Virus record (IMG/VR): IMGVR_UViG_2541047931_000005
Span: 1 to 33,086 of that record
Length of the DNA: 33,086 bases
DNA from: a virus
Lineage: Duplodnaviria > Heunggongvirae > Uroviricota > Caudoviricetes
Strand: one strand, 5' to 3'
The translations under genes and the position numbers were made by a program. Shown piece after piece: positions 1 through 33,086 of this stretch. Each line of letters begins with the position of its first letter. The first letter of the stretch is position 1. The notes beneath the pieces were generated by a model. That model saw only the letters and a program-made list of their open reading frames with translations, had not been told where the DNA came from and ran no database searches.

Positions 1-129
1 GGCTGCTACACCATGTTGCCGGGCAACGAGGGAGACCGTCATCCCCGGTTCAAAGCTCTGCTGAACAATTGCGATCTTTTCCTGTGTGGTACGCCGTCTG
101 CGTTTCTCCGGCCCTAAGACATCAATCAT
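1..129 (-). CDS. insC: IS2 transposase OrfA (InsC) N-terminal part, partial (runs off window)
   Basis: Minus-strand translation from ATG at 129-127: [43 protein letters not shown], the characteristic IS2 InsC N-terminus. Confidence 0.85.
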
Positions 130-220
130 CTGTTCTCCAATGACTAGTCTAAAAACTAGTATTAAGACTATCACTTATTTAAGTGATATTGGTTGTCTGG
201 AGATTCAGGGGGCCAGTCTA
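1..220 (-). mobile_element. IS2 (IS3 family) terminal segment, partial; element continues beyond window start
   Basis: Reverse complement of 1-220 matches the remembered IS2 left end (TAGACTGGCCCCCTGAATCTCCAGACAACC...) followed by the start of the IS2 orfA reading frame; boundary at 220. Confidence 0.85.
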
Positions 221-273
221 TGTTCCATTACATCCTGCGGATGCTCTTCGAACTCTTCAAATTCTTCTTCCAT
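221..273 (-). pseudogene. 5' fragment of an ORF (MEEEFEEFEEHPQDVMEH...) interrupted by the IS2 insertion
   Basis: ATG at 273 with upstream GGTGAG; the frame runs directly into the IS2 terminal repeat at 220. Confidence 0.4.
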
Positions 274-331
274 ATCTCACCTCAAATAAGTGGTTTGCTG
301 CCTAATTTCATTTTCTGGCGACCAACACAAG

Positions 332-715
332 TCACCTCGCCGTCAGTTGTTTTGATTTCCGGTAGCCTGCCGCGTAAATGGCTACGTTTGGAAGACATAC
401 ACCAGTTTCTGGTTGCTTATGTCCAAACTCATTCGCGTACACAATGGCCGCTCGCTCCAGATTGCGTCTGTATTCTTTCTGTTGCCAGATCACGTCCTGT
501 GCCATGAACTTAATTGGCTTAGCGTCTTCTATGCGCTCAGGCGTTTCGTGAGTACCTTTAGCCTGAATCTGTGCCCGACTGAGGGTAGGGCGATGAAGTT
601 TCTCTGAACTGATAACCTCTTCACGAGCTTCAACACCCTGTGCAATGGCTTGCGCCTTTAAACGTTCACGGCGACGAGCTGCTGATGAACCTTTGAAAGC
701 TGTTCTGCGTGTCAT
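332..715 (-). CDS. N: N-like transcription antiterminator (P22 gene 24 type)
   Basis: Arginine-rich motif SAARRRERLKAQ near the N-terminus and a C-terminus (YAAGYRKSKQLTAR) resembling P22 gp24; GGAGG RBS before ATG at 715; sits just downstream of pL/nutL. Confidence 0.75.
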   Translation of the reverse strand: MTRRTAFKGSSAARRRERLKAQAIAQGVEAREEVISSEKLHRPTLSRAQIQAKGTHETPERIEDAKPIKFMAQDVIWQQKEYRRNLERAAIVYANEFGHKQPETGVCLPNVAIYAAGYRKSKQLTAR

Positions 716-830: not shown

Positions 831-845
831 GCGCTTTGTCAGCGC
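831..845 (-). promoter_or_regulatory. nutL boxB hairpin (P22 type)
   Basis: Minus-strand RNA reads GCGCUGACAAAGCGC: 5-bp stem with a GACAA loop, between pL and N. Confidence 0.6.
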
Positions 846-915
846 CGTAGATTCATATTCGAATCGTTGTATATTCACCGACCTGGTGAGTAGTGCGTCC
901 TGCTGATGTGTTTAG

Positions 916-977
916 TATCACCGCTAGTGGTATTTATGTCAACACCGCTAGAGATAATTCATCACCGCAGATGGTTA
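916..977 (-). promoter_or_regulatory. OL operator triplet (OL1 916-932, OL2 941-957, OL3 961-977) overlapping the leftward promoter pL
   Basis: Three 17-bp sites TATCACCGCTAGTGGTA, CAACACCGCTAGAGATA, ATCACCGCAGATGGTTA matching the lambda cI operator consensus. Confidence 0.8.
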
Positions 978-1155: not shown

Positions 1156-2199
1156 TTAAAGAATACTTGCCAGATACTTAAGTTGTCTTTGATATCGAGT
1201 AACCGACTGGTTAACTTGTAACCTTTTCCCTTCACTTACTGTATGGAAGCGACCAACTTTTAGCTGTGATATTGGTATGCTTTCAGCCCCACTAATTTGC
1301 CCGCTTGATACAAAATCATCTGTAACCACAATTGCTTTGCTAACATCTTCATCGGCAAAGAGATGACTGTATTTTTCAGCGATTTTTACAGCTCTCTCTA
1401 TGTACATTTGAGATGCGCGACCTGGTGTTGATGATTTACGGCTTTTTGAACCAGCCATTGTCATTACGATCGCTGCTACTTTTGGAGCCCCAAGCCCACC
1501 CGCACGCTCATTCCATAATACAAAATCTTTTGATTTATTTGCCAGCATTTCCATTGTGAGATGAAGTGACTCAATTGAGTGTTCATCTACGCGTACAGGG
1601 ATAATCAATGCCTCAGACGCGCACCATGCTAGGTGTGTTCCTCCAGCATAGAAAGGGCTTGTATCCATCAATAAAATTTCGCATTTTTTGTCTTTCGCTT
1701 CATCGTTCATTATTGCGCGAAGAGAATTTAATAGTGTTGATACTGCTTTTGGTTCTCCGCGAGATAGCGCTACTTGTAGTTGTTGATACATGCTTGATGG
1801 GAAAGCGAATAGCTCAGGATCACCTGGAATCGCATAACATGCCTTACCACCTTTAAAATCTGGGCAGAAATTACTTACTCGATATGAAATATCTTCTGGC
1901 TGCTCACCAAAAGCTGGACCCAGCATTTTTGGTGTCAGTGCATTAGCTATTGTTACAACCGGTTTTTCACCACGCAATAGTGTCTCCGTTAAATTACATT
2001 GCGGGCATAAGTCAGCCACTAATACGGAGTTACGTCGTGACAGCTCATAGGCGAGGTTGAATGTCATCGTGGACTTACCAACACCACCGCGCAGATTGGA
2101 AACTGCATAACTTTTGAATTTTGGCCCGCCATCTACGACGTAACCTTCCTCAACAACTTGTGCATAGCGTGCCATTACTGACTCAACTACAGTGCTCAT
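1156..2199 (-). CDS. ParA/MinD/Soj-like P-loop ATPase with a C-terminal extension, function unknown (candidate accessory or exclusion gene)
   Basis: 347-aa ORF with deviant Walker A (LRGGVGKST), A'-like (VLVADLCPQCNLT) and Walker B-like (ILLMDTSP) motifs; AGGAGG RBS 7 nt before the ATG; AT-rich compared with its flanks. Confidence 0.85.
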   Translation of the reverse strand: MSTVVESVMARYAQVVEEGYVVDGGPKFKSYAVSNLRGGVGKSTMTFNLAYELSRRNSVLVADLCPQCNLTETLLRGEKPVVTIANALTPKMLGPAFGEQPEDISYRVSNFCPDFKGGKACYAIPGDPELFAFPSSMYQQLQVALSRGEPKAVSTLLNSLRAIMNDEAKDKKCEILLMDTSPFYAGGTHLAWCASEALIIPVRVDEHSIESLHLTMEMLANKSKDFVLWNERAGGLGAPKVAAIVMTMAGSKSRKSSTPGRASQMYIERAVKIAEKYSHLFADEDVSKAIVVTDDFVSSGQISGAESIPISQLKVGRFHTVSEGKRLQVNQSVTRYQRQLKYLASIL

Positions 2200-3508: not shown

Positions 3509-3523
3509 TCGCTGACAAAGCGA
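3509..3523 (+). promoter_or_regulatory. nutR boxB hairpin
   Basis: UCGCUGACAAAGCGA stem-loop with the same GACAA loop as nutL, between cro and the cII-like gene. Confidence 0.5.
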
Positions 3524-12068: not shown

Positions 12069-12311
12069 ATGGCAGAGATTATTCCCATGACTGAAGAACA
12101 GAAATTCCAGCTAGAGATTTACAAACTGGTCATGAACCAGAACGCAGCCGCAGAAGAAGCATTTCAGTTCATTGGCACTGACGAGCTGAAGCTTGAGCTA
12201 TTCAAAATTCACTTCCAGTCAGGCGGCGCTAATTCAGATATCACGACCCGCACAATCGAAGCGGTGCGTAAATCGAAGGAAGCGTTAGACCTGTTCACCA
12301 CCGGAGCATAA
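12069..12311 (+). CDS. Hypothetical protein (80 aa) upstream of terminase genes
   Basis: ORF with GGAG RBS, at the position where P22-like phages carry small ORFs before gene 3. Confidence 0.5.
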   Translation: MAEIIPMTEEQKFQLEIYKLVMNQNAAAEEAFQFIGTDELKLELFKIHFQSGGANSDITTRTIEAVRKSKEALDLFTTGA

Positions 12312-12390
12312 ACATGGCAACTCAAGGTTTCGACAACCCATCCAAATTCCGCGATGAATGGGATAAGCAAGCAGAAGGGAAATAATCAAT

Positions 12391-12879
12391 ATGGCAGCAC
12401 CAAAGGGCAACCGATTTTGGGAGGCCCGCAGTAGTCATGGGCGAAATCCTAAATTCGAATCGCCTGAGGCGCTGTGGGCTGCTTGTTGTGAATACTTCGA
12501 GTGGGCTGATGATAACCCGCTATGGGAGGGTAAGGTATTTTCATATCAGGGAGAAATAATTAAGGCTAATGTCCCTAAGATGCGAGCCATGACTATTTCA
12601 GGATTGTGTACCTTCCTTGATATCACCAGGCAAACATGGGGAACCTTCCGGTCAATGGAAGGTTTTTCTGACGTCACATCACGAGCGGAAGACATCATCT
12701 ACGACCAGAAATTCTCTGGCGCAGCCGCTGACCTTCTCAACGCTAACATCATCGCCCGTGATTTGGGCCTCAAAGAGCAGTCGCAAGTTGAAGACGTGAC
12801 ACCTGATAAGGGAGATCGCGATAAGCGGCGCTCTCGTATCAAGGAGCTATTCAACCGTGGAACTGGACGCGATTCTTGA
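12391..12879 (+). CDS. Terminase small subunit (P22 gp3-like)
   Basis: 162 aa; [38 protein letters not shown] motif; size and position match P22 gene 3. Confidence 0.85.
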
Positions 12880-14356
12880 TAACTTGAGCGACGAAGAGCA
12901 AATCGAATTGCTCGAGCTACTCGAAGAAGAAGAGAACTACCGGAACACACACCTGCTATATGAATTTACGCCATACAGCAAACAGCGTGAGTTCATCGAC
13001 GCCGGGCATGACTATCCAGAGCGCTGTTTTATGGCTGGTAACCAGCTTGGTAAGTCATTTACTGGTGCTGCTGAAGTCGCGTTTCACCTTACCGGGCGTT
13101 ATCCGGGCACAAAAGGCTATCCTGCTGATGGTAAATATGGCGGTGAGTGGAAAGGTAAGCGTTTCTATGAGCCTGTTGTCTTCTGGATTGGCGGCGAGAC
13201 AAACGAGACGGTAACCAAAACGACTCAACGCATCCTGTGCGGTCGTATTGAAGAGAATGATGAGCCGGGCTACGGTTCAATACCGAAAGAGGACATCATT
13301 AGCTGGAAGAAGTCTCCTTTCTTTCCGAACCTTGTTGATCATCTTCTGGTTAAGCATCACACGGCTGATGGCGTTGAAGATGGCATTTCAATCTGCTACT
13401 TCAAACCATACTCGCAAGGCCGCGCTCGCTGGCAGGGTGACACAATCCATGGCGTGTGGTTTGACGAAGAGCCGCCATACAGCATTTATGGCGAAGGGCT
13501 TACCCGTACCAACAAATACGGGCAATTCTCAATTCTGACGTTTACCCCGCTGATGGGGATGTCTGACGTTGTTACCAAGTTCCTGAAGAATCCCAGCAAG
13601 TCGCAGAAAGTGGTCAACATGACCATCTATGACGCTGAGCACTACACCGACGAGCAGAAAGAGCAAATCATCGCATCCTATCCTGAGCATGAGAGAGAGG
13701 CGCGTGCTCGCGGTATTCCTACGATGGGTAGTGGTCGAATCTTCCAGATACCGGAAGAGACGATTAAGTGTCAGCCGTTCGAGTGTCCTGATCACTTCTA
13801 CGTAATTGGCGGGATGGATTTCGGATGGGATCACCCACAGGCGCAGGTTCAGCTTTGGTGGGATAAGGACGCAGACATAATCTACCTTTCACGCGTTTGG
13901 AAGGCGAAAGAAAAGACAGCCGTTCAGGCGTGGGGAGCTGTTAAACCATGGGCGCATAAAGTGCCAACCGCATGGCCTCATGACGGAAACCAGCACGAGA
14001 AGGGCGGCGGTGAGCAGCTCAAAGGGCAGTATGCGGACGCTGGATTTATGATGTTGCAGGAGCATGCGACATGGCCTGATGGCGGTAACGCTGTTGAGCC
14101 TGGCATCACTGAATTGCGAGACATGATGCTCGACGGTCGCTTCAAAGTATTCAACACCTGTGAGCCATTCTTTGAGGAGTTCCGCCTCTATCACCGTGAT
14201 GAAAACGGGAAAATCGTCAAGCTTAACGATGACGTTCTCTCCGCCGTTCGCTATGCATACATGATGCGCCGCTTCGCAAAAATGATGCGCGACATCAAAA
14301 AACCAAAAGAGAAAAAGATACCAGCCCCAATCAGGCCAATCGCACGGAGAACTTAA
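12857..14356 (+). CDS. Terminase large subunit (P22 gp2-like)
   Basis: 499 aa, same length as P22 gp2; Walker A-like GNQLGKSF; overlaps the terS 3' end. Confidence 0.95.
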
Positions 14357-16522
14357 ATGGCCGACGAAAACAGACTCAATTCCATTCTGTGTAAGTTTGA
14401 CGCGGACTGGATGGCGAGCGATGAAGCCAGAACCGAGGCGACAAATGACCTGTATTTTAGCCGAGTGTCGCAATGGGATGACTGGCTATCAAACTACACC
14501 ACCCTGCAATATCGCGGACAATTCGATGTTGTTCGCCCGGTGGTCAGGAAACTGGTCGCAGAGATGCGCCGTAACCCTATCGATGTTCTCTTCAGACCAA
14601 AAGACGGAGCTAATCCTGATGCTGCCGATGTGCTGATGGGGATGTATCGTACTGATATGCGCCATAACACGGCAAAAATTGCCGTTAACGTTGGCGTTCG
14701 TGAGCAGATAGAGTCCGGCGTTGGTGCATGGCGTCTGGTCACGCAGTACGAAGACAACGACCCAACAAGCAACAATCAGGTAATCCGACGCCTTCCAATC
14801 CATGAAGCCTGCTCACACGTCATATGGGACGCCAACAGCAAGCAGATGGATAAGAGCGACGCTAAGCACTGCACGGTGATTAACGCTTTGTCACGCAATG
14901 GCTGGAAAGAGTTCGCAGAGGATTACGGTATTGATCCTGACACCCTGCCATCTTTCCAGAATCCGAACGATACATGGCTGTTTCCGTGGGTATCGAATGA
15001 TGTCGTCTACGTCGCTGAGTATTACGAGGTAGAAGAGAAGAAGGAGAAAGTCTTCATCTACCGCGACCCGCTGACAGGTGAGCCGGTCAGCTATTACCAG
15101 CAGGATATCAAAGACGTCATCGACGACCTGGCTAATCGTGGATTCATTAAGGTAGCAGAGCGTAAGGTCAAGCGTCGGCGTGTGTATAAGTCGATCATCA
15201 CCTGCACGCAGATACTGAAGGACCGAGAGAAGATAGCCGGAGAGCATATCCCAATCGTTCCTGTGTACGGCGAATGGTCATTCGCTGGTGACAAGGAGTG
15301 CTACGAAGGAGTGGTAAGGCTGACGAAAGACGGTCAGCGCCTTCGTAACATGATCATGTCATTCAACGCCGATATTGTTGCTCGTTCACCGAAGAAGAAA
15401 CCTACCTTCTTCCCTGAGCAAATAGAAGGCTACGAATACATGTACGGTGGAAATGATGACTATCCGTACTATCTCCAGAACAGGACTGATGAAAACGGTA
15501 ACGACCTGCCGATTGGTCCAATCTCCTACATGGAAAACCCTGAAGTGCCGCAAGCCAACGCTTACATGCTTGAGGCTGCCACCAACGCAGTGAAAGAAGT
15601 GGCTAGTCTTGGCGTGGATGCGCAGGCGGCAAATGGTCAGGTCGCTTTCGATACCGTCAATCAACTTAACATGCGGGCAGACCTTGAGACATACGTGTTT
15701 CAGGATAACCTGGCTACCGCAATGCGACGTGATGGCGAGATTTATGCCTCAATGGTCAACGATATTTATGACGTTCCTCGTCATGTAACGCTGACACTTG
15801 AAGATGGAAGCGAGAAAGACATTCAACTCTATGCGCAAGTTGTCGATTACCAGTCCGGCAATGTGGTCACACTCAACGACATTCGCGGTCGCTATGAGTG
15901 CTATACAGACGTAGGACCATCCTTCCAGAGTATGAAGGAACAGAACCGCGCAGAGATTCAGGAGTTGCTCACCAAGGTTCCGCAAGGTACTCCAGAGTTC
16001 CAGATGCTGATGCTGCAATACTTCACGCTGCTTGACGGTAAAGGCGTCGAGATGATGCGAGAGTACGCGAACAAGCAACTGGTGATGATGGGGCTGAAGA
16101 AGCCAGAAACACCTGAAGAGATGGAGATGGTACAGCAGGCTCAACAGCAGCCGCAGCAGCCATCAGCAGAGCAAATTCAGGCGCAGGGTATCCTTCTGCA
16201 AGGTCAGGCTGAATTGCTCAAGGCAGAGAACCAACAGGCGCAGATTCAGGTTGAAGCCGCCAAGGTTGAAGCCCAAAACCAACTCAACGCCGCGAAGATT
16301 GCAGAAATCTTCAACAATATGGACCTCGACAAGCAGGCAGAACTGCGTGAGTACCTCAAGCTCGTAGGTCAATTCCAGCAACAGCGCAGCAAAGATGCTC
16401 GTGCTAACGCTGAGCTGCTTCTTAAAGATGCAGACCAGACTCATTCACAACGCATGGATTTCGCGAATCTTATGCGTCAAGTTCAAATCCCCTCCGGCGG
16501 AGTAGCCGAGACACCTCAATAA
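14357..16522 (+). CDS. Portal protein (P22 gp1-like)
   Basis: 721 aa with a Q-rich coiled-coil C-terminal barrel region, immediately after terL. Confidence 0.95.
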
Positions 16523-16535
16523 GAGAGAGTTAATC

Positions 16536-17447
16536 ATGGACCAAACCACCGACATTCAGGCTTCTGAAGAATTAACCCTGCCCGGCAATCATGCAGCGGC
16601 ATCTGCTGATGGCTTAGTTGTCGATAATGCCAACGACAACGCAGGTCAGGAAGAAGGCTTCGAGATTGTCCTGAAAGACGATGAGAAACCAAAACAAGAC
16701 CCGGCAACTAATGCTGAATTTGCCCGTCGCCGCATCGAACGCAAACGCCAGCGTGAGCTTGAGCAACAGATGGAAGCGGTTAAGCGGGGAGAGTTGCCGG
16801 AGCACCTGCGGGTGAACCCTGAGTTACCAAAACAACCAGACCCTAACGATTATCTTTCCGAAGACGCACTGGCTAAGTACGACTATGACCAGAGCCGCGC
16901 ACTGGCTGCCTTCCAGCAGGCAAACAGTGAATGGCAGATCAAGGCTATGGACGCACGAAGCCAGGCTGTCGCCGAGCAGGGTCGCAAAACTCAGGAGTTC
17001 ACCCAGCAATCAGCGCAATACGTCGAGGCAGCCCGTAAGCACTACGACGCAGCGGAAAAGCTCAATATCCCTGACTATCAGGAGAAAGAGGATGTATTCA
17101 TGCAACTGGTGCCGCCAGCAGTCGGTGCCGACATCATGCGCCTCTTCCCGGAGAAATCCGCCGCTCTCATGTATCACCTTGGTGCTAATCCTGAGAAAAC
17201 ACGCCAGTTGCTGGCGATGGACGGGAAATCCGCGCTGATTGAACTCACTCTACTGTCAGAACGTTTAACTCTCAAGCCTCGAGCCAAACCTGTTTCAGAA
17301 GCCCCGCTACCTGATGAACCCATTCAGGGACACGCTGTTGCTGCAAATATATCTGCGATTGAAAAGCAGATGGAAGCGGCAGCAAACAAAGGGGATGTAG
17401 AGACATACCGCAAGCTTAAGGCGCAACTGAATAAAGGAATTCGATAA
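16536..17447 (+). CDS. Scaffolding protein (P22 gp8-like)
   Basis: 303 aa, acidic and helical, between portal and coat as in P22. Confidence 0.9.
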
Positions 17448-18742
17448 TGGCATTAAATGAAGGTCAACTAGTCACGTATGCTCTGGATGAAATCATCGAA
17501 ACCGTCCAGAACCTGACGCCAATGGCGTCCAAAGTGACAAAATACACCCCTCCGGCAGAATCCATGCAGCGTTCAAGCAACACCGTGTGGATGCCTGTTG
17601 AGCAGGAAGCGCCAACCCAGACTGGCTGGGATTTAACTGGCAACGCAACCGGGATTCTGGAACTCTCCGTGAAGTGCAACATGGGCGATCCGGATAACGA
17701 TTTCTTCGAGCTTCGTGCAGATGACCTGCGTGATGAGCGTTCTTACCGTCGCCGCATCCAGGCATCCGCCAAAAAACTGGCGAATAACATTGAGTCAGCG
17801 ATTGCCAAACAGGCAACTGAAATGGGCTCGCTTGTTGTTCACGATACCCGCGCAATTGGTCCATCTACTGGCCTGTCTGGCTGGGATTTTGTGTCTGATG
17901 CAGAGCGCCTGATGTTCTCCCGTGAGCTAAACCGCGATATGGGCATCAGTTACTTCCTGAACCCTGACGATTACCGTAAAGCAGGCCGCAACCTGGTAGA
18001 TGGTGACATCTTCGGGCGCGTTCCTGAAGAAGCGTATCGCAACGGTACTATTCAGCGTCAGATTGCTGGCTTTGATGAAATTCTTCGCTCACCGAAACTT
18101 CCGGCAGTTACCAAGTCAACCGCTACTGGTGTAACTGTGTCTGGTGCGCAGAAGTTTAAGCCGCAGGCATACACCCTTGATACCGATGGTAACAAAGAGA
18201 ACGTCGACAACCGTGTTGCAACGGTGACCGTATCCTCCACCACCGGATTTAAGCGCGGCGACAAAATCAGCTTCACTGGTGTGAAATTCCTGTCTCAGAT
18301 GGCGAAGAACGTGCTGACTGATGATGCAACTTTCTCAATCACCCGTGTGATCGATAGTACTCACATCGAAATCACGCCGAAACCGATTGCACTGGATGAC
18401 GCGTCACTGACAAAAGAAGAGAAGGCTTACGCTAACGTAAACACTTCTCTTGCTGATACCACTCCGGTAAACGTTCTGAACGTGGCAACAACCACCGCTA
18501 ACGTGTTCTGGGCTGATGACTCAATCCGCCTACTGTCTCAGCCGATCCCGGTAACCCATGAACTGTTTGCTGGCATGAAAACTTCTTCCTTCAGCATTCC
18601 TGGCATTGGTGTTAACGGCATCTTCGCAACGCAGGGTGATATCAACACTCTGTCTGGTAAGTGCCGTATTGCTGTGTGGTATTCAGCATGTGCTGTACGA
18701 CCAGAGGCAATTGGCGTTGGTCTGCCTAACCAGACTGCGTGA
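17447..18742 (+). CDS. Major coat protein (P22 gp5-like)
   Basis: 431 aa at the canonical position, followed by a strong terminator hairpin. Confidence 0.95.
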
Positions 18743-18750
18743 TAACCAGA

Positions 18751-18772
18751 GGGAGCTTCGGCTCCCTTTTTT
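18751..18772 (+). terminator. Intrinsic terminator after the coat gene
   Basis: GGGAGC-TTCG-GCTCCC hairpin followed by TTTTTT. Confidence 0.6.
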
Positions 18773-18786
18773 ATCTGGAGACAAAC

Positions 18787-19023
18787 ATGACACACATGAT
18801 CTTTCGTCATGGCGACATGAAGAAGTGGAAAGGCGTTGGCTACGACTTTGAAATCGTGAAAGCCGAAGAGATTCAGGAATATCTGGATGCTGGTTGGTTT
18901 GCACATCCCGATGACCTTCTTAAGGACGTTGCAGAGCCAGAGCCAGAGCCAGAAGAAAAACAGCGTAAAAAGCCTGGTCGAAAACCTAAGGCGGCAGCAG
19001 ATGAACCTGACAACGAAGGGTGA
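18787..19023 (+). CDS. Small hypothetical protein (78 aa) with EPEPEPEE low-complexity segment
   Basis: ATG at 18787 with GGAGA RBS; its 3' end overlaps the gp4 start. Confidence 0.4.
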
Positions 19024-19501
19024 TTTAGTTCTTGCGGCATTACGTAAGCTCGGTGTGGCATCAAATGCCACGTTAACCGATGTCGAACCTCAGTCCATGG
19101 AAGATGGCGTCAACGACCTTGAAATGATGATGGCTGAATGGCTTGGCGGTGATGTGTCACCTGGTATCAACGTTGGCTACATTTTTGCTGATGCAGATGT
19201 CGCTCCAGATCCGGGAGATGAGCACGGATTATCAAATAACGCTATAAATGCCGTCATTTTCAACCTTGCCTGCCGCATTGCTCCAGATTATGCGCTGGAA
19301 GCGTCTGCAAAACTTATAACCACTGCCAGATACGGGAAAGAGCGACTCGTCAAACTGTCTGCAATGGACAGAGCAAAAGCCGCTAAATGTAAGTCCGGTT
19401 ATCCAAACCGTATGCCTGTTGGTAGTGGTAACCAGTTGGCGAAGTGGAACGGTTGGAATTACTTCCACCGAAAGGAACCTTGCGATAACGGGAGCGAATA
19501 A
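19001..19501 (+). CDS. Head-completion / tail-accessory protein (P22 gp4-like)
   Basis: 166 aa from the internal ATG at 19001 ([32 protein letters not shown]...), matching P22 gp4 size and N-terminus. Confidence 0.85.
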
Positions 19502-20919
19502 TGCCGATTCAGCAACTTCCGCTTATGAAAGGTGTCGGCAAAGACTTTCGAAACGCCGACTATATCGACTATCTGCCAGTGAATATGTTGGCTACACCCA
19601 AAGAAATCCTGAACAGCAGCGGATATCTTCGCTCATTCCCGGGCATTGCCAAACGTTCTGATGTGAACGGCGTATCGCGGGGCGTCGAGTACAACATGGC
19701 GCAGAATGCTGTTTATCGCGTATGTGGTGGTAAGCTGTACAAAGGAGAAAGTGAAGTCGGTGACGTCGCCGGAAGTGGTCGCGTATCAATGGCGCATGGT
19801 CGAACATCTCAGGCTGTAGGCGTTAATGGTCAACTGGTCGAGTATCGCTATGATGGTACGGTTAAAACCGTCTCAAACTGGCCTACAGACAGCGGATTCA
19901 CGCAGTATGAGTTAGGCTCAGTCCGCGACATTACGCGATTACGTGGGCGTTATGCGTGGTCAAAAGACGGTACTGATTCATGGTTTATCACTGACCTTGA
20001 AGACGAATCTCATCCTGACCGCTACAGCGCACAATATCGCGCAGAATCGCAGCCTGACGGCATCATCGGCATCGGAACATGGCGAGACTTCATCGTATGC
20101 TTTGGTTCATCAACGATTGAATATTTCTCCCTGACAGGTGCAACCACTGTTGGTGCCGCTTTGTATGTCGCACAGCCATCGCTGATGGTGCAAAAAGGAA
20201 TCGCCGGAACCTACTGCAAAACGCCGTTTGCTGATTCGTATGCGTTCATCAGCAATCCGGCAACAGGTGCGCCGTCTGTGTATATCATCGGCTCCGGTCA
20301 GGTATCACCAATCGCCAGCGCGAGCATTGAGAAAATCCTTCGTTCCTACACTGCTGATGAACTGGCTGATGGCGTGATGGAATCGCTGCGATTTGATGCG
20401 CATGAGTTGCTGATTATCCACCTTCCGCGCCATGTTCTGGTGTACGACGCATCTTCAAGTGCCAATGGTCCGCAATGGTGTGTGCTGAAAACAGGCCTGT
20501 ATGACGATGTGTACCGCGCTATCGACTTCATTTACGAAGGCAATCAGATAACGTGCGGCGATAAGCTTGAATCGATGACAGGAAAATTGCAGTTCGATAT
20601 CAGCAGCCAGTACGACAAGCAACAGGAACACCTGCTGTTTACTCCGTTGTTCAAAGCGGATAACGCCAGAGTTTTCGACCTTGAAGTTGAATCGTCAACT
20701 GGAGTTGCGCAGTACGCCGACCGCCTGTTCCTCTCTGCAACCACTGACGGCATAAATTATGGTCGTGAGCAGATGATTGAGCAGAATGAACCGTTCGTTT
20801 ACGACAAACGCGTTTTGTGGAAGCGTGTCGGGCGAATCAGGAAAAATGTTGGCTTCAAATTGCGCGTTATCACGAAGTCACCTGTAACTCTTTCTGGCGC
20901 TCAGATAAGGATTGAGTAA
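19501..20919 (+). CDS. Tail-accessory protein (P22 gp10-like)
   Basis: 472 aa, same size and position as P22 gp10; start overlaps the gp4 stop (TAATG). Confidence 0.9.
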
Positions 20920-30140: not shown

Positions 30141-33086
30141 ATGAGAGACATTACAGCCAATGTGATCGTATCGATGCCTTCGCAACTCTTCACTATGGCG
30201 CGTTCTTTTAAAGCCGTAGCCAATGGCAAAATTTATATCGGTAAAATTGACACTGACCCTGTAAATCCTGAAAACCAGATTCAGGTTTATGTGGAAAACG
30301 AAGACGGCTCTCACGTTCCTGTTTCGCAACCAATCATCATTAACGCTGCTGGATATCCTGTATATAACGGACAGATTGCCAAATTCGTAACTGTGCAAGG
30401 CCATTCTATGGCTGTTTATGATGCGTATGGTGCGCAGCAGTTCTATTTTCCGAATGTGCTGAAGTATGATCCTGATCAGTTACGGCGGCAATTAGAAGAC
30501 CCAGATGGAGCGAATAAATACCCAAAACTTCAGATAGCAAGATGGAGAGACAGTTATGATGTAAGAGGTTGGGGGGCTATTGGTGATGGTGTTCATGATG
30601 ATACATCAGCTCTATCAGAATTACTTTCTGTTGCAACAGGTGGTGAAAAGATAGATGGGCGAGGGCTTACTTTTAAAGTATCAAATCTTCCGGATGTCAG
30701 TCGATTTAAAAATGCTCGTTTTTTATTTGAGAGAATACCGGGTCAGCCTCTTTTTTATGCTTCTGAAGATTTTATCCAGGGAGAGTTATTTAAAATTACA
30801 GATACACCGTGGTACAACGCCTGGACGCAGGATAAAACGTTTGTATATGACAATGTCATCTATGCGCCTTTTATGGCTGGAGACCGCCATGGTGTAAATA
30901 ACCTCCATGTTGCATGGGTTCGCTCAGGAGATGACGGGAAGACCTGGACAACGCCGGAATGGCTTACAGATTTACATGAAAACTATCCCACAGTTAACTA
31001 TCACTGCATGAGTATGGGGGTTGTCAGAAATCGCCTTTTTGCTGTAATTGAGACGCGGACCGTGAGAGGAAATAAACTGCAGGTTGCAGAGTTGTGGGAT
31101 CGCCCAATGAGTCGCAGCCTTCGCGTTTATGGTGGTATAACGAAAGCAGCAAATCAGCAAGTCGCTTATATTCGCATTACTGATCACGGATTATTTGCTG
31201 GTGATTTTGTCAACTTCTCAAACTCTGGTGTTACAGGTGTTACCGGGAATATGACGGTGACTACTGTTATTGATAAAAATACTTTTACAGTTACGACGCA
31301 AAATACCCAGGATGTGGATCAGAATAACGAGGGTAGATACTGGAGTTTTGGTACATCATTTCACTCGTCACCATGGAGAAAAACCAGTCTTGGAACTATT
31401 CCTTCTTTTGTTGACGGAAGCACTCCTGTTACTGAGATTCACAGTTTTGCGACGATTAGCGATAACAGTTTTGCTGTTGGCTACCATAATGGTGATATTG
31501 GTCCACGCGAGCTTGGGATACTCTATTTCTCTGATGCTTTCGGTTCTCCTGGTAGCTTTGTTCGCAGACGCATACCTGCAGAATATGAGGCGAATGCATC
31601 TGAGCCATGTGTAAAATATTATGATGGCATTCTGTATCTGACGACCAGGGGGACATTAAGTACTCAACCCGGTAGTTCATTGCACAGAAGCTCTGATTTA
31701 GGTACATCATGGAATTCTCTTCGCTTCCCAAATAATGTTCATCACTCAAACCTTCCTTTTGCCAAAGTTGGCGATGAGCTGATTATTTTTGGCAGTGAGC
31801 GCGCATTTGGTGAGTGGGAAGGAGGAGAACCTGATAACCGTTATGCAGGAAATTATCCAAGAACATTTATGACCAGAGTTAACGTCAATGAGTGGAGTCT
31901 GGATAATGTAGAGTGGGTTAATGTTACTGATCAGATTTATCAGGGCGGAATAGTTAACTCTGCGGTTGGTGTTGGTTCAGTTTGTATCAAAGACAACTGG
32001 CTGTACTACATTTTCGGTGGGGAAGACTTTCTAAACCCATGGAGCATAGGGGATAACAACAGAAAATATCCTTATGTTCACGATGGTCACCCGGCTGATT
32101 TATATTGTTTCAGGGTGAAAATCAAACAGGAAGAATTTGTTTCAAGGGATTTTGTCTACGGAGCCACTCCTAACAGAACGCTTCCTACTTTGATGTCGAC
32201 GTCAGGCGTGAGGACGGTTCCTGTACCCGTTGATTTCACAGATGATGTTGCCGTCCAGTCACTGACTGTCCATGCAGGTACATCAGGACAAGTTCGCGCG
32301 GAAGTCAAACTTGAGGGTAATTACGCCATTATTGCGAAGAAAGTACCGTCTGATGATGTTACCGCTCAGAGATTAATCGTTAGCGGCGGTGAAACAACGT
32401 CTTCAGCAGATGGTGCAATGATAACGTTGCATGGTTCCAGAAGCAGTACTCCACGTCGCGCGGTATATAACGCACTCGAACATCTTTTTGAGAACGGAGA
32501 TGTTAAACCTTATCTTGATAATGTAAATGCTCTTGGTGGTCCGGGAAACAGGTTCTCGATAGTTTATCTTGGCTCCAATCCTGTGGTTACCAGTGACGGA
32601 ACATTAAAGACAGAGCCGGTCTCTCCTGACGAAGCATTGCTGGATGCCTGGGGTGACGTCAGGTATATCGCTTATAAATGGCTGAACGCTGTCGCTATAA
32701 AGGGGGAAGAAGGGGCGAGGATACATCATGGTGTAATCGCGCAGCAACTTCGTGATGTTCTTATTTCTCACGGACTCATGGAAGAAGAAAGCACAACATG
32801 CCGCTATGCCTTTCTTTGCTATGACGATTATCCCGCAGTATATGATGACGTCATTACTGGCCAAAGGGAAATGCCGCTGACTGATAATGACGGGAGCATC
32901 ATTGTTGATGAGGATGATAATCCAGTGATGGTAATGGAAGACATCATTGAGCGCGTTGAAATAACGCCAGCAGGATCTAGATGGGGGGTCAGACCTGATC
33001 TCTTATTCTATATCGAGGCGGCATGGCAGCGCAGAGAAATGGATAAGATAAAAGCTAGGTTAGACTTAATAGAAGGGAAGCACTAA
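30141..33086 (+). CDS. Tailspike: P22-type head-binding N-terminal domain fused to a sialidase-like (endosialidase-type) body and C-terminal chaperone-like domain
   Basis: N-terminal about 120 aa resemble P22 gp9 ([13 protein letters not shown]...[38 protein letters not shown]...[14 protein letters not shown]...VLKYDPDQ); two Asp-boxes SGDDGKTW (30924-30947) and SSDLGTSW (31689-31712). Confidence 0.85.

Follow-up and report, generated by a model that had tools for sequence, protein, structure and literature searches.

All the parts of the locus analysed here are already known: IS2, the orf28 gene of phage lambda, the N-antiterminated pL operon, and IS insertions in the early operons of lambdoid phages. 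The closest described cases are lambda r32 (IS2) and lambda r14 (IS1), in both of which an element has landed past a nut site of an early operon under N antitermination, adding terminators that the N-modified polymerase has to cross. Both sit in the rightward operon, upstream of essential replication genes, where partial polarity results in a growth phenotype. In galEP3 (gal3), IS2 lies in the gal leader and acts as a Rho-dependent terminator block between the promoter and the genes; transcription of gal is not N-modified and the polarity is strong. Phages r32 and r14 form plaques on wild-type E. coli and fail on nus mutants only; with nusA1 or delta-nusB hosts their defect exceeds that of wild-type lambda. 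Their elements are described as increasing termination and as making the phage sensitive to nus mutations (PMC4807359). They show that such insertions raise the dependence of a phage on fully efficient antitermination.

The second known part is orf28. In the lambda record this gene (lambdap47, NP_040623) spans 34271-34357 and overlaps ral (34087-34287). Both orf28 and ral are dispensable in lambda. Their knock-down by CRISPRi, of one or the other, left the plating of lambda on a restriction-less host unreduced (PMC10695390), and lambda strains with a delta-orf28-ral deletion could be constructed and grown (PMC2327257).

We analysed a window of 33,086 nucleotides, i.e., the whole stretch of DNA whose first lines are given above. 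The element that received IS2 is a P22-like prophage; it has lambda immunity and occupies att-lambda. In our judgement it is quite likely that a single IS2 transposed into codon 18 of its orf28 homologue, and that this was a recent, essentially neutral, strain-specific event of an ordinary kind that left the prophage inducible. Unlike the elements of r32 and r14, this IS2 is in the leftward operon, where only genes for accessory functions, recombination, and excision follow it. In contrast to galEP3, nutL and N should suppress its polarity.

The IS2 end and the interrupted orf28 frame

Four features, all on the minus strand, make up the start of the window:

1..220, minus strand: left (IRL) end of IS2, nucleotides 1-220 of the 1331-bp element, with 0 mismatches against IS2A of E. 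coli K-12 MG1655
1..129, minus strand: first 43 codons of insC/orfA (IS2 TnpA, HTH_Tnp_1), from the translation and from Pfam and NCBIfam matches
205..273, minus strand: chimeric 22-codon ORF, MEEEFEEFEEHPQDVME followed by HRLAP*, with a tail from the IS2 IRL, from the translation
221..273, minus strand: truncated homologue of lambda orf28 (lambdap47), codons 1-17 and 2 nt of codon 18, of 28; residues 1-17 are identical to those of lambda

The reverse complement of positions 1 to 220 is thus 100% identical to nucleotides 1 to 220 of IS2A. The two copies have in common the start of the IRL (TAGACTGGCCCC...), the leader hairpins, and the start of InsC, whose ATG (window 129-127, minus strand) corresponds to IS2 nucleotide 92, around 90 nt inside the IRL. 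The 43 codons of InsC were matched by the Pfam profile HTH_Tnp_1 (PF01527, E=3.9e-9) and by the NCBIfam profile NF006928, "IS2 repressor TnpA", at model positions 1-43 (E=1.8e-25). The initial annotation had taken these 220 bp for the end of an IS2 with the InsC start on the minus strand, and our results agree with it. IS2 sequence stops at base 220 and phage sequence starts at base 221; the matches of complete E. coli genomes aligned to the phage side mostly start at query base 221. The transposase genes point leftward, i.e., in the direction of transcription from pL (sense orientation). The element was sequenced at this one end; the remaining ~1.1 kb would fall within an assembly gap of 1565 Ns, together with orfB, the IRR, and a 5-bp target duplication of the kind seen at the MG1655 copy.

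On the phage side, the minus-strand ORF that starts at position 273 reads MEEEFEEFEEHPQDVMEH and then RLAP* out of IS2 sequence, so that window 273-205 translates as a whole to MEEEFEEFEEHPQDVMEHRLAP*. It shares with lambda orf28 the first 17 residues, the Shine-Dalgarno context, and probably the position directly upstream of ral. It differs from lambda orf28 by being cut in codon 18 and fused to IS2: this codon, CAG (Q) in the intact gene, is CAT (H) here, and IS2 supplies the next four codons and the stop. The break, after 17 codons and 2 nt, is where the initial annotation had placed it when stating that an ORF was cut after about 17 codons. At this site nine intact relatives read ...ATGGAACA/GTACCAGG, whereas the window reads ...ATGGAACA/TAGACTGG; the relatives continue from there into ral (...ATGGAACA/GTACCAGGACTATCCGTATG). 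Judged by these relatives, the insertion is 17 nt upstream of the ral ATG. The N stop codon precedes it by 111 nt and precedes the orf28 ATG by 58 nt. Intact orf28 has 28 codons (MEEEFEEFEEHPQDVMEQYQDYPYDYDY*, the identical translation being found in the lambda record), and its last 17 nt overlap the start of ral in lambda and in all intact relatives. The order of genes is that of phage 21, with orf28 directly after N, whereas lambda has sieB between them.

The intact orf28 of a relative matched PHROG 16060 (phrog_16060) over positions 1-28 of 28 (E=7e-19). This is a family of 28 positions with no function assigned, and searches of Pfam and NCBIfam with orf28 matched no family. The window carries a disrupted allele of PHROG 16060, without an intact 28-codon frame, and not a functional member of the family.

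A frame with these characteristics might not be a gene at all, in which case the interval from N to ral would be a non-coding spacer and the IS2 in it would truncate nothing. Orf28 is 28 codons long, acidic, and of low complexity, it lacks a Pfam or NCBIfam family, it is left out of many genome annotations, and it has no known function. The initial annotation had proposed to align the interrupted ORF to intact homologues, and we did so with 13 intact copies taken from E. coli prophages and from lambda, 21, HK140, ev017, P22, ST64T, BTP1, and UPF_BP1. The frame is open in all 13 and always of the same length, at nucleotide identities down to 87%, and a Shine-Dalgarno-like motif (GAGG/AGGT) precedes the ATG. 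When the count was restricted to the part of orf28 that does not overlap ral, 14 of the 17 variable sites were third codon positions (binomial P=4.7e-5, from 9 distinct sequences that form a small and related sample). A co-phased antisense frame would put these same changes at first positions. The gene is also annotated in lambda and forms a PHROG family. Judging from the pattern of substitutions, orf28 is in all appearance a translated gene under purifying selection, and it is extremely improbable that the target of IS2 was a non-coding spacer. We rejected the reading of orf28 as a spurious ORF on this codon-position pattern.

The assembly gap and the left arm

The window matches scaffold KE702254.1 of a draft E. 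coli genome (GCA_000461115.1), which was found through its exact N protein, with 0 mismatches in all 10,715 overlapping nt. In this scaffold, 1565 Ns begin directly at window base 1. The window therefore starts at a contig break, due to the repeated IS2, and not at a biological boundary. Past the gap, sequence is available again from the last 21 codons of ral on. Of ral, only this 3' end is seen on the far side; its 5' part and the 3' part of orf28 would lie among the Ns. The left arm then continues with a 52-aa ORF, cIII/kil, a 62-aa ORF, an ATPase and its partner, the anti-RecBCD gene (abc2), ead-like genes, DUF551, xis, and int, and is collinear with that of uninterrupted relatives. Its last feature is the lambda att core (TTAGTATAAAAAAGC), next to which stands the pectinesterase gene ybhC.

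This arrangement is read most economically as a single full copy of IS2 next to a left arm that is intact. A simple insertion predicts a gap of 1271 nt (1111 nt of IS2, 5 nt of duplication, and 155 nt of orf28'/ral), and the 1565 nt given by the scaffolder are of the same order, if ~290 nt larger. IS2 would then be full length and flanked by a 5-bp duplication, GAACA, by the convention under which the IS2A copy of MG1655 has an ATTAC duplication. The predicted far junction, made of the right end of IS2, the duplication, and the rest of orf28, would read ...GGGGCAAATCCA-GAACA-GTACCAGGAC..., or ...AGGGGCAAATCCA/GAACA/GTACCAGGAC when given with another extent.

Alternatively, the IS2 end might mark a rearrangement (deletion, inversion, or composite element) or a scaffolding error, and the left side would not consist of the remainder of IS2 followed by orf28'/ral. 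Several observations could be read in this way: Ns stand immediately left of window base 1, their number exceeds the prediction, the far contig starts in the middle of ral and not at an IS2 end, and the predicted far junction was found in none of the collections searched. Yet the 3' end of ral is on the same scaffold, correctly oriented and at roughly the expected distance, and the collinearity with uninterrupted relatives extends to int and to att beside ybhC. Furthermore, a contig break in the middle of ral is expected if the genome has another lambdoid prophage, because ral and orf28 are 93-99% identical among many phages. A rearrangement or a scaffolding error is thus highly improbable. 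Loss of the left arm mediated by IS2 was rejected, since the scaffold runs on to int and att.

Extending the sequence leftward had been proposed in the initial annotation as a means to find the other IS2 end with its 5-bp duplication, and to detect an assembly chimera. The collinear left arm argues against a chimera, whereas the other end of IS2 and the duplication lie in the 1565-N gap.

The junction between IS2 and orf28 was absent from 5,426 complete E. coli genomes, from the GTDB species representatives, and from the JGI metagenome contigs, and the predicted far junction with the GAACA duplication was likewise absent from the collections searched. The insertion therefore appears to be private to this assembly or strain. 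A related prophage (GCA_000951935.1, LM997272.1), with an identical N protein and intact orf28/ral, carries an IS3-family element at positions 13583-14796 of locus L004. This element has ORFs of 108 and 295 aa (HTH_Tnp_1 and rve) and lies between the anti-RecBCD gene (abc2) and a truncated DUF2737 gene, i.e., it is another element than the IS2 of the window, at another site of the left arm, and in the opposite orientation. Since a sister prophage carries a different IS in its left arm, insertions in this accessory region are recurrent and tolerated.

The early region upstream of the insertion and the mosaic prophage

The control elements of the early operons are as follows:

332..715, minus strand: full-length N antiterminator gene, 127 aa, of the H-19B/933W type (Pfam N_peptide, E=5.9e-15; PHROG 271)
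831..845, minus strand: nutL boxB-type hairpin GCGCTGACAAAGCGC in the pL leader, with a second copy after cro
914..942, minus strand: pL promoter, TTGACA-17 nt-GATACT, from a promoter scan
916-932, 940-956, and 960-976: lambda-type operators oL1, oL2, and oL3, overlapping pL, each identical to lambda at 16 of 17 positions
3509-3523, plus strand: boxB-type hairpin TCGCTGACAAAGCGA at the nutR position, just downstream of cro, matching the nutL hairpin

The interrupted ORF had been assigned to the early-left operon downstream of N, and the positions of pL (942-914) and N (715-332), on the same minus strand as the ORF, bear this out. N was matched by PF25694 and has the length and the arginine-rich RRRER motif described for the N protein of H-19B. 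The exact protein is encoded on at least 24 other contigs, and the same N allele is found with an uninterrupted orf28 on at least nine other contigs. Between this N and that of an intact relative, 116 of the 127 residues match.

The boxB-type hairpin had a chance expectation of 0.17 matches. The nutL and nutR copies agree in the GACAA loop and in the greater part of the stem, and their closing pairs are G-C in nutL and T-A in nutR, i.e., a double, compensatory change. In position and behaviour the second hairpin is what one expects of nutR. We did not identify boxA.

The differences of the operators from lambda follow a pattern. The same C-to-T change, at an equivalent position, is found in oL1 and oL2 (CCAG to CTAG), and oL3 has a T-to-C change at its first base. 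CI is identical to that of lambda at 234 of 237 residues (three differences), and Cro at 64 of 66. The changes in oL and the differences in cI may represent a co-varying immunity sub-variant.

The prophage as a whole (window 221-33086 and positions 12281-19734 of locus L005) is a four-way mosaic. It combines cI, cro, and oL of lambda, a lambda-type int at att-lambda beside ybhC, and an N of the H-19B type with a replication gene of the primase-helicase type (626 aa, Toprim_2), and with P22-like virion genes whose closest phages are APC_JM3.2, HZ41, and IME10. One joint of this mosaic can be placed next to the insertion. Immediately after the N stop codon, at window 282-335 (minus strand), an out-of-frame stretch reads ...VTCVGRQKMKLGSKPLI, which corresponds to the C-terminus of the N protein of phage 21 (...VTCVGRQKIKLGSKPLI). 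Between window 335 and the IS2 boundary the DNA is 96.5% identical to phage 21. The joint lies exactly at the N stop codon, where an N gene of the H-19B type has recombined onto a module of the phage 21 type (3' end of N, orf28, and ral).

A P-loop ATPase of the ParA/MinD type (347 aa, window 1156-2199, minus strand) is encoded between cI and pL, i.e., in the slot of rexA-rexB in lambda. It was matched by Pfam AAA_31/CbiA and by PHROG 164, "ParA-like partition protein", and showed a weak, sub-threshold match in PADLOC (PDC-M28B, E=1e-3). A terminator-like hairpin with a T-run comes after this gene (around 1150-1120, minus strand). The gene is in the same position in every relative with this N allele, and it may be an accessory or exclusion gene expressed in the lysogen.

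At the other extremity of the window, an ORF of 981 codons (30141-33086, plus strand) comes after the tail and injection genes, which are P22-like, and its stop codon ends at the last base of the window. It may be a gene of the tailspike type. The window stops short of attR, and the sequence covered includes neither the right end nor the full length of the prophage. A gain of 1.3 kb might conceivably be more than such a P22-like phage can package by the headful.

Expected effect on the pL operon

In a repressed lysogen the insertion would be silent, because pL is repressed, and its effect would be limited to 1.3 kb of added DNA. Upon induction, the pL transcript would pass nutL, N would be made, and the N-modified polymerase would enter IS2 through the IRL, in the sense direction. 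Since pL, the nutL boxB, and N are intact upstream of the insertion, transcription into IS2 should be N-modified and resistant to terminators. The polymerase would then cross all of IS2 (1.3 kb) with its Rho-dependent terminators, and ral, cIII, kil, the recombination genes, xis, and int would still be expressed. Their expression, from ral to int, is possibly reduced in quantity. The Shine-Dalgarno sequence and the ATG of ral are unchanged at the reconstructed far junction, and a scan of this junction found no hybrid outward promoter that would drive ral constitutively. The one certain functional loss is that of Orf28, and the direct loss would be limited to this 28-residue peptide.

The insertion could also have a more severe effect. 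If IS2 ended transcription from pL, then ral, cIII, kil, the recombination genes, xis, and int would be off, and the prophage would be defective in excision or altered in its induction. In the IS3 family most of orfB is expected to be poorly translated, a situation that favours Rho and thereby polarity. The enhancement of termination by the elements of r32 and r14 (PMC4807359) points in the same direction. Against such a knock-down stands, first of all, the position of the insertion, downstream of an intact pL, nutL boxB, and N. The release of insertion polarity by N in gal is said to be classical, and is reportedly due to Adhya, Gottesman and de Crombrugghe in 1974. The plating of r32 and r14 on wild-type hosts indicates that N overrides terminators borne by IS elements (PMC4807359), and the genes of the left operon located after N are non-essential for the lytic growth of lambda (PMC10695390). 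We therefore regard a polar knock-down of the operon as unlikely. The initial annotation had gone further: it expected that downstream delayed-early functions were probably lost and that the prophage might be defective or altered in induction. This part was not supported, given the intact pL, nutL boxB, and N upstream, the plating of r32 and r14, and the collinear left arm: nothing in the sequence supports calling this prophage defective.

The quite likely reading remains that of an essentially neutral transposition of a single IS2 into orf28. One may also ask if the element has acquired a role in the operon. Induction could drive strong N-antiterminated transcription from pL through insC/insD, and thus couple a burst of IS2 transposase, and of transposition, to the SOS response, or the terminators of IS2 could act as an N-conditional insulator against leaky expression of kil. 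We consider either role very unlikely. If the insulator reading were true, a lower leakage of the toxic kil and of its neighbours in the lysogen would amount to a small step in the domestication of the prophage.

The value of these results is mainly one of annotation: the contig ends, at an assembly gap, in an authentic IS2 junction, and the ORF that is cut there is orf28. As a modest by-product, the comparison of intact copies supports orf28 as a conserved coding gene across lambda-like and P22-like phages.
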